The position numbers are program-made. Shown piece after piece: positions 1 to 21,000 of a stretch of DNA of 64,000 nt. Within the stretch, counting starts at the first letter, position 1. Each line of letters begins with the position of its first letter. Source of the DNA: Escherichia coli (GTDB lineage: Bacteria > Pseudomonadota > Gammaproteobacteria > Enterobacterales > Enterobacteriaceae); the NCBI RefSeq assembly GCF_041248615.1, contig NZ_CP158426.1, one strand, 5' to 3'.

Positions 1-3000
1 GTGGTGAAGTCCAAGTCGATGGTGACCGAAGAAATCGGCGTCAACCATGTGTTGCAGGATGCCGGAATCCAGGTGATCGAAACCGATCTCGGGGAATATA
101 TCCTGCAGTTGGATCAGGATCCGCCTTCGCACGTCGTGGTTCCGGCGATTCATAAAGATCGCTACCAGATCCGCCGCGTGCTGAACGAACGTCTGGGGTA
201 CGACGGCCCGGAAACCCCGGAAGCTATGACCTTGTTCATTCGTCAGAAGATCCGCGAGGATTTCCTCAGTGCCGAAATCGGTATTACTGGCTGTAACTTT
301 GCCGTGGCGGAAACCGGCTCGGTGTGTCTGGTGACCAACGAAGGCAACGCGCGCATGTGCACCACGCTACCGAAAACGCACATTGCGGTGATGGGCATGG
401 AGCGTATCGCGCCGACCTTTGCCGAGGTGGATGTGCTGATTACCATGCTGGCGCGCAGCGCCGTGGGCGCACGTCTGACGGGCTACAACACCTGGCTGAC
501 CGGCCCGCGTGATGCGGACAACGTTGACGGACCGGAAGAGTTCCATCTGGTGATTGTCGATAACGGTCGCTCGCAGGTGCTGGGCTCAGAGTTTCGCGAT
601 GTGCTGCGCTGCATCCGCTGCGGAGCCTGTATGAACACCTGTCCGGCGTACCGCCACATCGGCGGGCACGGCTATGGCTCTATCTATCCCGGCCCTATCG
701 GCGCGGTGATTTCTCCGCTGCTCGGCGGCTATAAAGATTTTAAAGACCTGCCGTACGCCTGTTCTTTGTGCACGGCTTGTGACAGCGTCTGCCCGGTGCG
801 TATTCCGTTGTCAAAACTGATCCTGCGTCATCGCCGGGTGATGGCCGAGGAGGGCATTACGCCGAAAGCCGAGCGACGGGCGATCAAGATGTTCGCCTAT
901 GCCAATAGCCATCCGGGGCTGTGGAAAGTCGGGATGATGGCGGGCGCGCATGCGGCGAGCTGGTTTATCAATGGCGGCAAAACCCCGCTCAAGATTGGCG
1001 CGATTGGTGACTGGATGGAGGCGCGCGATCTGCCTGATGCTGACGGCGAGAGCTTCCGCAGCTGGTTTAAGAAACATCAGGCGCAGGAGAAAAAGAATGG
1101 ATAACCGTACCGCGTTTTTAAACACCATCGCCCAGGCGCTGGGTCGCCCGCTGCGCTTCGAACCGCAAGCGGATGCCGCACCGGTTAACAACTATGCCAA
1201 CGAGCGCCTGACCGAGCTTAGCCCCGAGCAGCGCTGCTCTGCGTTTATCCAGTTTGCCAGCGAAGTGATGCTGGCCCGCTGCGAACTGACCAGCGAGGAC
1301 CAGGCCGCAGACGCGGCACTGCGCCTGTGCGAAGAATTGGGTCAGCAGCCGGTGGTGCTGAGCGGCGACAGCCGGCTGGTGGAGCTGGGCATCACCGAAC
1401 GCTTGCAGCAGGAATGCAACGCCGTGGTCTGGGATCCGGCGCGTGGTAGCGAAAATATTACCCAGGCCGAGCAGGCGAAAGTCGGCGTGGTGTATGCCGA
1501 ATATGGCCTGACCGAGTCCGGCGGCGTGGTGCTGTTTTCCGCACCGGAGCGCGGGCGCTCCCTGAGCCTGTTGCCGGAGTCCTCTATTTTCGTGCTGCGT
1601 AAAAGCACCATCCTGCCGCGCGTGGCGCAGCTGGCAGAAAAACTGCATCAGAAAGCACAGGCCGGTGAGCGTATGCCATCGTGCATTAATATCATCAGTG
1701 GACCCAGCTCGACGGCGGATATTGAGCTTATCAAGGTGGTTGGGGTGCATGGTCCGGTGAAGGCGGTATATCTGATTATTGAGGATTGTTGAGGCAGGAT
1801 GGAAAACCGCTCTGGCGCTGTGGGCCAGAGCGGTATCAACGTTATGCAATCATGCTGATGATCAACACGATTATCAGGCCAACCACGGAGTTTACCAGCT
1901 CCAGCAGACCCCAGGTTTTCAGCGTATCCTTCACCGACAGATCAAAGTAGCCTTTGAACAGCCAGAACGAAGCATCGTTGATATGGGTCAGCGTGTTGGA
2001 GCCAGCCGCTGTTGCCAGCACCAGCAACGCCGGGTCGACGCCCACCAGTTGACCGGTTGCCGGGTCGAGGATTGCTGCGCTAATAATCCTCGCCGCCGTC
2101 ATGGCTGAGACCACGCCCTGACCCGTTGCCAGACGGATCAGCACGGTTATCAACCACGCCATGATGTAGGGAGAAATATTGCCGTGTGACATCAGCATGC
2201 CGATGGTATCGCCGATGCCGGTATCGATAATGGTTTGCTTCAGTACGCCGCCTGCCACTGACTGCCGGAGCAGGGACTGCGCTGACTCTGTAAATCCGCC
2301 GCTCTGTACGTTGGGATTGTTAATCCGAGTAACTAAGTAACACGCTATACCTTGACTCCTTATGCTTACATGCTTGCACATCGTTACGGCACAAAATTCA
2401 ACTGTGGCAAAGCAAGTGCGCTGTTGCGTTCTCTTGGGAAGGTGCGAACAAGTTCCTGATATGAGATCATCATATTCATCCGGAGCGCATCCCAGAGGGA
2501 CATCATGAGCCATCAACTCACCTTCGCCGATAGTGAATTCAGCACTAAGCGCCGTCAGACCCGAAAAGAGATTTTCCTCTCCCGCATGGAGCAGATTCTG
2601 CCATGGCAGAATATGACCGCTGTCATCGAGCCGTTTTATCCCAAGGCGGGCAATGGCCGACGGCCCTATCCGCTGGAGACCATGCTGCGTATTCACTGCA
2701 TGCAGCATTGGTACAACCTGAGCGACGGTGTCATGGAAGATGCCCTGTACGAAATCGCCTCCATGCGCCTGTTTGCCCGATTATCCCTGGATAGCGCCCT
2801 GCCGGACCGCACCACCATCATGAATTTCCGCCACCTGCTGGAGCAGCATCAACTGGCCCGCCAATTGTTCAAGACCATCAATCGCTGGCTGGCCGAAGCA
2901 GGCGTCATGATGACTCAAGGCACCTTGGTCGATGCCACCATCATTGAGGCACCCAGCTCGACCAAGAACAAAGAGCAGCAACGCGATCCGGAGATGCATC

Positions 3001-18000: not shown

Positions 18001-21000
18001 CAGCCCTGTTGTCCTGTATTGAACAGGCCAGGGAGGATATCCGTACCCTGCGCCAACTGCAGCTTCAGCCCCCGAACCGGTGAGTTTCACTCATCATCTC
18101 ACTCACCAGACTTCATTCCACTGACGCCAGCCTGAACAGGGCTGGCGTTTTCATTTATCTGCAAAAAGGAATATCGATTATGTCTGATATCACAGCCTCC
18201 CGTCCGGAAGTAGTCAACGGGCATACGGACGTTATCTGCTCAACCAGTATCCGCCACATTCTGGCTGTACGAAAAAGTACACTGCTGCAAATCAACACAC
18301 TTATCCGGCAACTGGCTGAAATCTCAGCAATGACAGAAAGTATTGGCGGTAAAACCGCACTGGACTGGGCGATGAAACAGGATTTTCGCTGTGGCTGCTG
18401 GCTCATGGAGAAACCTGAAACGGCAATGAAAGCCATCACACACAATCTCGATCGTGAAATCTGGCGTGACTTGATGCAACGTTCCGGGATGCTTTCCTTA
18501 ATGGATGCACAGGCCCGTGAGACATGGTACCGGTCACTGGAGTACGATAATTTTCCGGAAATCAGCGAAGCGAACATCCTGAGCACATTTGAACAACTGC
18601 ACCAGAATAAGGATGAGGTGTTTGAGCGAGGGGTGATCAACGTCTTCAGAGGGCTGAACTGGAATTACAAAACCAATTGCCCCTGTAAATTTGGCAGTAA
18701 AATTATCGTCAACAATCTGGTGAGATGGGACCGGTGGGGATTTCATCTTATCACCGGACAACAGGCTGACCGACTCGCCGATCTGGAAAGAATGTTGCAC
18801 CTGTTCAGCGGTAAACCAATCCCCGACAATCGGGAAAACATCACTATTCGTCTGGATGAGCACATTCAGTCTGTTCAGGGTAAAGAGAGCTATGAAGATG
18901 AGATGTTCAGCATCAGATACTTTAAGAAGGGCTCCGCGCATATCACATTCAGAAAACCAGAACTGGTTGATCGGCTAAATGACATCATTGCAAAGCGTTA
19001 TCCGGGACAATTATCAGCCATCTGAGTCAGATGGAAAAAAGCTTACCTGACCCATTACCTGACCCAATTCAAAGGAAAAAGAAAAAGGGTTAGCTGGTTT
19101 ATTAGCTAACCCTTTGTTGTGTATGGTGGCCCCTGTTGGGTTTGAACCAACGACCAAGCGATTATGAGTCGCCTGCTCTAACCACTGAGCTAAGGGGCCA
19201 TGGTAGCGGATTATAAAGTAACTCCGTGTCGCAATCCAGCCATTACCGCGCGCCTGCTGTTTTTATAAACAATGTATTTTCAATCCGTTATACTTTTCCT
19301 GGTGATGTTAGAAAGGAGTAAATATGGTTGAGGATATTTTGGCCCCAGGGCTACGGGTCGTGTTTTGCGGTATCAACCCTGGGCTTTCATCCGCCGGAAC
19401 GGGTTTTCCCTTTGCTCATCCGGCAAATCGCTTCTGGAAGGTGATATATCAGGCCGGGTTTACCGACCGTCAGTTGAAGCCGCAGGAGGCACAGCATCTG
19501 CTGGATTATCGTTGTGGCGTCACCAAACTGGTAGACCGTCCAACGGTGCAAGCCAATGAAGTTTCAAAGCAAGAACTACACGCAGGCGGGCGTAAGCTGA
19601 TTGAAAAAATTGAAGATTATCAGCCGCAGGCGTTGGCGATTCTGGGCAAACAAGCATATGAACAGGGATTCAGCCAGCGCGGTGCACAGTGGGGGAAACA
19701 AACTCTCACCATTGGTTCGACGCAGATTTGGGTGCTGCCAAATCCCAGCGGTTTAAGTCGCGTTTCACTGGATAAACTGGTTGAAGCGTATCGCGAGCTG
19801 GACCAGGCGCTGGTAGTGCGTGGGCGATAAAAAACGCCACCGAAAAGGTGGCGTTTGTGCAGAGGGACTAGTGCCGGGTGCGGCGTAACGCCTCTACCGA
19901 TTAATCGTCCAGGAAGCTACGCAGCACTTCAGAACGGCTCGGGTGACGCAGTTTGCGCAGCGCCTTCGCTTCGATCTGACGGATACGTTCGCGGGTAACG
20001 TCGAACTGTTTACCCACTTCTTCCAGCGTGTGGTCGGTGTTCATATCGATACCGAAGCGCATACGCAGAACTTTCGCTTCACGCGCGGTCAGGCCAGCCA
20101 GCACGTCGTGCGTTGCCGCACGCAGGCTTTCGGTGGTCGCAGAATCCAGCGGCAGCTCGAGGGTGGTATCCTCGATGAAATCCCCCAGATGCGAATCTTC
20201 ATCATCACCGATCGGCGTTTCCATGGAGATTGGCTCTTTGGCGATCTTCAGCACTTTGCGGATCTTGTCTTCCGGCATCAGCATACGTTCAGCCAGTTCT
20301 TCCGGCGTCGGTTCACGGCCCATCTCTTGCAGCATCTGGCGAGAAATACGGTTGAGTTTGTTGATAGTCTCAATCATATGCACCGGAATACGGATGGTGC
20401 GCGCCTGATCCGCGATAGAACGGGTGATCGCCTGACGGATCCACCAGGTTGCGTAGGTGGAGAACTTGTAACCACGGCGGTATTCGAATTTATCAACCGC
20501 TTTCATCAGGCCGATGTTACCTTCCTGAATCAGGTCAAGGAACTGCAAGCCACGGTTGGTGTATTTCTTGGCGATAGAAATAACCAGACGTAAGTTCGCT
20601 TCAACCATCTCTTTCTTCGCACGGCGGGCTTTTGCTTCACCGATGGACATACGACGGTTGATATCTTTAACCTGCTCGATGGTCAGGCCGGTTTCTTCTT
20701 CAATCTGCTGCAGTTTCTGCAGGGCGCGATGCACTTCTTCAGAGACATCGTGCAGTTTTTCCGACCACGGCTTGTTCATTGCAATTGCCGCGTTGAACCA
20801 GGTATCGCTGGTTTCGTTGCCGGTAAACAGGGTAATGAAGTTTTTCTTCGGCATTTTGCACTGCTCAACGCAGAGCTTCATGATCAGACGTTCTTGCGTA
20901 CGAACGCGGTCCATCATGACGCGCATGCTGTTGACCAGGTAGTCAAACTGCTTCGGCACCAGGCGGAACTGTTTGAATACTTCAGACAGTTTCAGGATCT

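Follow-up and report, generated by a model that had tools for sequence, protein, structure and literature searches.

The accessory DNA that separates an IS5-family insertion sequence (IS) from the tRNA-Ile(CAU) gene ileX in a 64,000-nucleotide stretch of an Escherichia coli chromosome (assembly GCF_041248615.1, contig NZ_CP158426.1; hereafter the window) very probably makes up only the tRNA-proximal third of a mosaic integrative island of 48.4 kb that resides in the 3' half of ileX. This block, at window positions 2437-19123, combines a type I restriction-modification (R-M) system with a module resembling K-12 CP4-44, and it had originally been predicted, from the window alone, to be a 17-kb island bounded by the IS5 element. 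The block is 100% identical to positions 802437-819123 of NZ_LT599825.1, the chromosome of E. coli NRZ14408; the whole window corresponds to positions 800,001-864,000 of this record, and the RefSeq annotation was read on both sides of the block. On that larger scale the predicted boundary disappears. The IS5 element is internal, and the DNA between two copies of the ileX 3' part amounts to 48,370 bp, reaching from a hybrid ileX gene (window 19124) leftward past window position 1.

The two ends of the island in ileX

In K-12 the nfeF gene (yqjH) is located 53 bp after ileX with nothing between. The tRNA gene in the window (19124-19199, minus strand) was located with ARAGORN, has the anticodon CAT and matches K-12 ileX at 72 of 76 positions; the ARAGORN label tRNA-Met(CAT) was rejected, and the gene was assigned to tRNA-Ile2 by its identity to K-12 ileX. 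Directly after the nfeF terminator, 47 nt (record 770,707-770,753) repeat the 3' part of K-12 ileX without a mismatch. The island-side copy of this repeat is formed by positions 19124-19170 of the hybrid ileX and matches the displaced fragment at 43 of 47 positions. All four substitutions in the hybrid tRNA relative to K-12 are in the T arm, namely one compensatory stem pair (C-G to T-A) and two changes in the loop, and the cloverleaf fold is kept. From the anticodon loop to the variable region the two copies share a perfect 20-bp identity, CGACCAAGCGATTATGAGTC (window 19151-19170). Since the hybrid tRNA carries the T arm of the island and the displaced fragment carries the native one, the crossover must lie within these 20 bp, and the displaced fragment and the hybrid tRNA together form the footprint of integration by an element whose attachment site (attP) carries its own version of the tRNA 3' part. 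A repeat search (seed 14, minimum length 40) of a stretch of the record that includes positions 791,272-794,761 returned no repeats; the att repeats are shorter and imperfect and were seen by reading the ends.

The DNA on the far side of the IS belongs to the same insertion, as both window positions 1-2436 and a further 29.2 kb upstream are located between ileX and nfeF. According to the RefSeq annotation the cargo left of the block consists of the lactate utilisation genes lutB (cut by the window start) and lutC (1-1792, plus strand), followed by a GntP-family permease fragment, a pseudogene without its N-terminus (1842-2255, minus strand) that is found as an identical fragment in strain ET210 (see below). 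The 29.2 kb upstream contain dld, a lactate permease gene, IS1414 and IS3 fragments, a group II intron and a gene cluster for raffinose/sucrose-type sugars, and then, towards nfeF, YagK/YfjJ-like and Gp2-like genes, a helix-turn-helix gene, hypothetical genes and a tyrosine recombinase gene. The group II intron has an intact reverse transcriptase/maturase gene (ltrA), is inserted within an IS3-family transposase gene (record 791,272-794,761) and adjoins the IS1414 fragment.

When GC content and codon usage were compared with the flanking backbone, a check that the original prediction had proposed, the composition of the island was strongly mosaic. The whole island has approximately 50.5% GC, the lut segment 58-59% (72% at third codon positions, GC3), the R-M cassette 43.6% and the CP4-like module 54%, relative to 51% in the backbone. 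The low GC of the R-M cassette is reflected in GC3 values of 37-53%, with hsdS at the lower end (GC 38.6%, GC3 37%), as compared to 60% for the backbone.

Integration functions at the nfeF end

From the lack of an integrase gene between the tRNA and the IS5 element it had been concluded that the element is degenerate or immobilised. The observation is literally true but uninformative, because the integrase gene is present at the other end of the island, and it escaped notice because that end lies before the window start. The integrase gene, an excisionase homologue and the displaced tRNA fragment are found 31.5 kb to the left of the IS, and with a 438-aa integrase, an AlpA-type excisionase homologue and ileX 3' repeats at both ends the conclusion of immobility does not hold.

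The integrase gene (record 770950-772266) starts 196 bp from the displaced tRNA fragment and encodes a protein with Arm-DNA-bind_3, Phage_int_M and Phage_integrase domains. It matches the phrog_1 integrase family (E 3e-46) and aligns with temperate-phage integrases over 94-96% of its length with 31-39% identity, showing that it is not truncated. The P4-type model PRK09692 is only distantly related (72 bits, cut-off 434). The catalytic region, as we read it, would comprise the motifs TGGQRP, DLRRT and NHAL and a C-terminal HYDRYDY. A 75-aa AlpA-like protein encoded 3.2 kb downstream of the integrase gene matches phrog_2790, "excisionase and transcriptional regulator" (E 3e-22).

Within the 111 kb covered by a motif search, a tandem pair of the 12-mer TTACCTGACCCA was present at two positions only: 46 bp upstream of the integrase ATG, and at window positions 19043-19066 (plus strand), between the DUF4942 stop codon and the tRNA. 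A diverged relative of the integrase gene, with approximately 75% DNA identity, is present in E. coli ECL27977 (NZ_OZ464527.1) beside a tRNA-Ile(CAU) 3' fragment adjoining ypjC, a neighbourhood that we take to be the ileY region from the K-12 map. Here, too, TTACCTGACCCA is present as a tandem pair, with an additional inverted copy, and a Fic/DOC gene comes next. The spacer in ECL27977 is approximately 55-60% identical overall, but a 41-nt patch with the tandem pair has a single mismatch. The tandem repeats are thus candidate arm-type integrase binding sites on both attP arms, and the comparison points to a lineage of integrases that are specific to the two tRNA-Ile(CAU) genes, ileX and ileY. 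As the candidate arm sites are located within the 196-bp interval between fragment and integrase gene and overlap the integrase promoter region, negative autoregulation of the integrase is plausible, as shown for IntF and IntS. The promoter of intF, the integrase gene of K-12 CP4-6, overlaps with the recombination region and is for that reason repressed by IntF itself (PMC2951348).

Two genes follow right after the integrase gene (record 772,396-774,679) and encode proteins of 198 aa (plus strand) and 534 aa (minus strand), a position typical of defence or accessory cargo. The sole match of the 198-aa protein is phrog_7522, a family of unknown function, and the 534-aa protein has no match in PHROGs or PADLOC. 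No defence-system match was obtained with PADLOC and PHROGs for the four hypothetical proteins of the integrase end (198, 534, 248 and 186 aa).

A layout shared with CP4-6

Reading K-12 CP4-6 from its tRNA gene thrW gives genes for a toxin, an antitoxin, a DUF987 protein, a RadC-like protein, an antirestriction protein, a DUF932 protein and a GTPase, all transcribed towards the tRNA. As in the ileX island, IS-ridden metabolic cargo comes next, then a YagK/YfjJ-like gene (yagK), and the integrase gene is found at the far end beside a tRNA fragment. As in CP4-6, the CP4-like module in this type of island is normally located at the tRNA and the integrase gene at the far end. The two elements differ in the tRNA gene (thrW versus ileX), in their integrases, which are approximately 25% identical in the catalytic domain, and in the DNA of the shared module, where identity is 67-76%. 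Unlike CP4-6, the ileX island also has flu/isrC, the type IC R-M cassette and the DUF5983, DUF957 and DUF4942 genes. The possibility that a tRNA-distal integrase is a new or unusual arrangement was considered and rejected, since K-12 CP4-6 has it and the divergent tRNA fragment-integrase pair ptwF-intF was described by Panis et al. as the rare "OD" shape (PMC2951348).

Nor is ileX a new site. It has been recorded as the site of modules of the locus of adhesion and autoaggregation (LAA; PMC5539235, PMC7545054) and of integrative elements in Shiga toxin-producing E. coli O145:H28 (PMC7067040). Ag43-bearing modules are found at both ileX and serX in the published elements, and the ileX element is related to the serX one (PMC7067040, PMC5539235, PMC7545054). 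Set beside the published islands by description rather than by sequence, the cargo described here (raffinose-type sugar and lactate genes and type IC R-M) differs from the LAA virulence cargo.

Distribution of the island

For quantification of the island and its parts, BLAST probes were counted at a coverage of at least 80% in 5426 complete E. coli genomes. The empty mug-ileX-nfeF site (701-bp probe) is present in 4955 genomes (91%) and in K-12, in agreement with the prediction of an accessory block that the K-12 mug-ileX locus lacks; in most genomes the block is thus not contiguous with mug-ileX. At least 80% of the 16.7-kb block is carried by 285 of the 5426 genomes, and an integrase-bearing version, which the prediction had proposed to look for, does exist in NRZ14408; the junction nfeF-fragment-integrase is found in 442. 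The DUF4942-ileX-mug junction is present in 346 and the hsdM-yeeP junction in 432. Approximately 8% of the genomes have an island of this integrase type at ileX, mostly with the R-M and CP4 arrangement. Humans, poultry, pigs, frogs and seawater are among the hosts and sources of the listed carriers. In most related genomes the match to the block is split into three pieces that cover 95% of it, and swapping of hsdS recognition domains between strains is one possible cause of the unmatched 5%.

A type IC restriction-modification cassette

All genes that had been listed for the block, comprising hsdM-hsdS-hsdR, an antirestriction gene, a type IV toxin-antitoxin pair, Ag43 and others, are present and intact, and profile and Pfam matches confirm that the type I R-M system stands beside the antirestriction gene, the toxin-antitoxin pair and Ag43. 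The three hsd genes are on the minus strand. The hsdR gene (3633-6749) encodes a full-length type IC protein whose residues 1-1038 align with residues 1-1038 of EcoR124I HsdR (PDB 2w00, 2263 bits), and the 518 residues of the likewise full-length HsdM (8061-9617) align with residues 3-520 of the EcoR124 M subunit (7bst_D, 1148 bits; TIGR00497, 650 bits). In the 397-aa HsdS (6871-8064) the conserved regions at residues 1-22, about 140-197 and about 340-397 are identical or nearly identical to those of EcoR124, and there are two TAEL repeats, but both target-recognition domains differ.

Type I families are defined by sequence, complementation and cross-reactivity (PMC3874165), and the cassette qualifies as type IC by the sequence criteria of Loenen et al. 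(PMC3874165). A pair of TAEL repeats goes with a 6-bp spacer, as in EcoR124I (PMC3874165). With both recognition domains divergent the recognition sequence, and hence the half-sites and specificity, is presumably new. EcoR124I/II of plasmid R124 has the same hsdM-hsdS-hsdR order, near-identical full-length HsdR and HsdM and, in EcoR124I, the same two TAEL repeats, whereas the cassette described here is chromosomal and island-borne. It also lacks the prrC insertion that is present in EcoprrI.

Homology to plasmid type IC cassettes extends from window position 3633 to about 9627-9639, most matches ending at 9627-9630, so that DNA more than approximately 10-20 bp upstream of hsdM, or downstream of the hsdR stop codon, is not plasmid sequence. 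The homology generally found upstream of yeeP starts at approximately 9784. Between these limits, the R-M cassette is separated from the CP4-like module by a 153-bp junction segment (9631-9783), which is common neither to plasmid type IC cassettes nor to CP4-like islands without R-M, and which presumably carries the hsdM promoter.

The CP4-44-like module

The part of the block between the junction segment and the tRNA was predicted to be CP4-44-like cargo, and this description stands, with 86-96% DNA identity to K-12 CP4-44 over the yeeP, flu and yeeS-yeeW segments (96% in the yeeP 3' part, 86-89% in flu and 92% in yeeS-yeeW). All its genes are on the plus strand. The module begins with a full-length YeeP/YkfA-like GTPase gene (9881-10753; RefSeq and profile match), followed by the isrC small RNA/flu leader (10870-11106; Rfam IS102 RNA, 72 bits) and an intact gene for an Ag43/Cah self-associating autotransporter of 948 aa (11125-13971), which covers positions 1-948 of the 948 in the equivalog profile NF033177 (1981 bits, cut-off 1200). 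Then come a YafZ/YfjQ-like DUF932 protein (14298-15116; PF06067, E 1.4e-49), the ArdB/KlcA-type antirestriction protein (15207-15692; Pfam Antirestrict PF03230, E 2.6e-35 over the full model length), a YeeS-like, RadC-like JAB-domain protein (15708-16184; Pfam) and a YeeT-like DUF987 protein (16253-16474; Pfam). The antitoxin CbeA (16554-16922; PF06154, E 5e-50) is encoded upstream of the toxin CbtA (17012-17395; PF06755, E 5e-57), both matching over the full model length, with 89 bp between the two genes. A full-length YeeW-like DUF5983 protein (Pfam) and DUF957 and DUF4942 proteins (RefSeq annotation) end the conserved module (17386-19025). NCBIfam gave no match for the small proteins of the module or for the AlpA-like protein; they were resolved by Pfam and PHROGs.

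The order yeeP, isrC, flu, RadC-like gene, DUF987 gene, cbeA, cbtA, yeeW is the same in K-12 CP4-44. CP4-44 is decayed, having neither tRNA nor integrase, a yeeP pseudogene and a truncated yeeW, and the copy in the island is thus more complete. K-12 has yeeR where the island has the DUF932 and antirestriction genes, and it lacks DUF957 and DUF4942. Ag43 has 948 aa in the island versus 1039 aa in K-12, and the flu regulatory spacer differs by 13 bases. Expression of agn43 is regulated by Dam methylation in competition with OxyR, at three GATC sites in the OxyR-binding region upstream of flu. Three GATC sites are also found upstream of flu in the island (starting at 10872, 10891 and 10904), with flanks that are conserved with the K-12 regulatory region and an extra 13 bp between the first and the second site. 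They constitute a candidate Dam/OxyR phase switch and predict phase variation, which the altered spacing makes less certain.

ISKpn26 and the copy of the block at serX

The IS5-family element is ISKpn26 (2437-3632, plus strand; 1196 bp), with the transposase encoded at 2505-3485 (RefSeq; NF033581, 364 bits) and inverted ends of 16 bp. It is flanked by CTTG and CTAA and thus has no 4-bp target duplication. The right end abuts the TAG stop codon of hsdR, and since HsdR shares its C-terminus and stop codon with a plasmid copy, hsdR is not truncated. A simple insertion of the IS into the DNA downstream of hsdR was considered and rejected, as window positions 1800-2436 have no similarity to that DNA in plasmid p2017-02-1CC_2. 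The absence of a target duplication together with the unlike DNA on the left indicates that the IS marks a rearrangement, which joined the R-M cassette to the segment with the lactate genes and the gntP fragment. RefSeq also annotates a 63-aa hypothetical protein (3467-3658, plus strand) that starts within the right end of ISKpn26 and crosses into the antisense strand of the hsdR 3' end; it is almost certainly an annotation artefact.

A block of approximately 19 kb with the lactate, IS, R-M and CP4 segments is found at serX in strain ET210 (NZ_CP100987.1, about 2,984,000-3,024,500) with 97.8% identity. The match stops 22 bp before the DUF4942 stop codon, and the att-proximal tail differs. In the ET210 block hsdR and hsdM are frameshifted, and an IS1-mediated deletion has taken away the distal end of the island and part of pga, leaving no integrase gene. 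The left part of the ET210 island contains McrBC and an AAA-ATPase/M48 peptidase pair. The junctions from lut through the gntP fragment and the IS to hsd are identical in this unrelated strain, which shows that the IS has long been an internal feature. The block is a long-established composite that islands at different tRNA genes have exchanged, in agreement with the derivation of an ileX element from a serX one (PMC7067040).

One island, two islands or remnant

Could the block nevertheless be an island of its own, reaching from IS5 to ileX, that has lost its integrase and become degenerate? There is no integrase reading frame within 2437-19123, the missing target duplication means that the IS does mark a rearrangement, and a version without an integrase gene exists at serX in ET210 after the IS1-mediated deletion. 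However, the foreign DNA at this locus continues to the left of the IS, inside the repeat-bounded insertion, with integrase, excisionase homologue and tRNA fragment at its far end. CP4-6 shows that such an end-to-end layout is normal, and the identical IS junctions in ET210 point the same way, so that this explanation is already contradicted and must be regarded as very improbable. There is next to no chance that the block is core E. coli DNA that was lost from K-12. Its presence in several hundred genomes is all that speaks for such a loss, which is refuted by the uninterrupted mug-ileX-nfeF site in 91% of complete genomes, by the displaced fragment and the hybrid tRNA, which are signatures of insertion, and by the mosaic composition.

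The alternative that deserves most attention is a fusion of two islands, where the right-hand block came from, for instance, a serX island and was grafted onto an ileX integration module by homologous or IS-mediated recombination, in which case the 48 kb never moved as a unit. Such a history is a serious possibility, if not the one we favour. It would account for the 97.8% identical block at serX with its match ending 22 bp before the DUF4942 stop, for ISKpn26 without target duplication, for the IS fragments and the intron between the two halves and for the unequal counts of the integrase junction (442 genomes), the DUF4942-ileX junction (346) and the block (285), and an ileX integrative element derived from the serX one has been reported in O145:H28 (PMC7067040). 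Against it stand the matching att features at both ends (tRNA repeat and tandem 12-mer), and the fact that islands of this kind are natively built with a CP4-type end module at the tRNA and the integrase gene at the other end. A fusion would also be compatible with the 48.4-kb island in ileX, as it concerns the history and not the present structure.

Several points count against our reading of the block as part of a 48.4-kb integrative island. The serX copy has a different left part and no integrase, suggesting that the island is a recombinant mosaic and not one unit inherited intact. Its interior is scarred by the IS1414 and IS3 fragments, the group II intron, the gntP fragment and the IS without target duplication, and excision of the 48-kb unit may therefore be rare. 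In its DLRRT motif the integrase appears to carry Arg at the position that the first His of the HxxR box (box II) takes up in many relatives; this position is known to vary. A promoter scan of 9500-11200, upstream of hsdM, found no sigma-70-like site, with 1.7 expected by chance, which makes it uninformative. Finally, the population counts are probe-based with an 80% coverage cut-off and come from a collection biased to clinical isolates.

Outside the island, an IS3-family element (48177-49405) disrupts a fimbrial usher pseudogene without its N-terminus (45792-49650), part of a chaperone-usher cluster between ribB and zupT.

Proposed mechanism of integration and function

Judging from the sequence, the tyrosine integrase would recombine an attP site carrying a look-alike of the 47 nt at the ileX 3' end with the chromosomal ileX, the crossover taking place within the 20 bp from the anticodon loop to the variable region. 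The outcome would be a functional hybrid tRNA at one end and, at the nfeF end, the native 3' fragment, now displaced, with the integrase gene coming after it. Read from the integrase end, the integrase, the AlpA-like excisionase homologue and the YagK/YfjJ-like genes would make up a module for integration and regulation. The IS-scarred metabolic cargo for raffinose/sucrose-type sugars and lactate may be seen as the next module, and then come a low-GC, plasmid-type type IC R-M cassette, joined to the cargo via ISKpn26 without target duplication, and the conserved CP4-type end module.

As expected from its family, the M2S form of the R-M enzyme should methylate a bipartite target, and the R2M2S form should translocate and cut unmodified incoming DNA (PMC3874165). 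Proteins of the ArdB/KlcA type are in vivo inhibitors of restriction by type IA, IB and IC systems, EcoR124 among them (PMC2836571, PMC10149784). The member encoded by the island could thus shield it when it enters a new host, and might also dampen the island's own R-M enzyme. CbtA blocks the polymerisation of FtsZ and MreB and is counteracted by CbeA, and this pair may stabilise the island. Ag43 would, if it behaves as its family, give phase-variable autoaggregation through competition between Dam and OxyR at the three GATC sites.

The recurrent pairing of R-M and antirestriction genes, seen in the hsdM-yeeP junction of 432 genomes, raises the question whether the two form a functional unit, in which the antirestriction protein transiently silences both its own HsdR and that of the recipient until the new chromosome is methylated, alongside an ileX/ileY-specific integrase lineage with an integrase-distal layout and tandem arm sites overlapping the promoter. 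We consider this unlikely; if true, a restriction system could ride on an integrative element.

Significance

The island adds one more example to the familiar class of E. coli tRNA-linked integrative islands, having a known site and known modules, and only the probably new type IC specificity and the candidate arm-site motif of the ileX/ileY integrase lineage are mildly new. Its value is mostly corrective. The extent and mobility of such an island cannot be judged from the tRNA-proximal side alone, an IS inside the island is no boundary, and in CP4-6-type elements the integrase gene is found at the far end beside the displaced tRNA fragment. To a multidrug-resistant clinical E. coli strain the island adds a probably new type IC specificity, an adhesin and the catabolism of sugars and lactate, and the block moves between ileX and serX islands. 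All these features are in line with what is known of E. coli integrative elements and raise no long-standing question.

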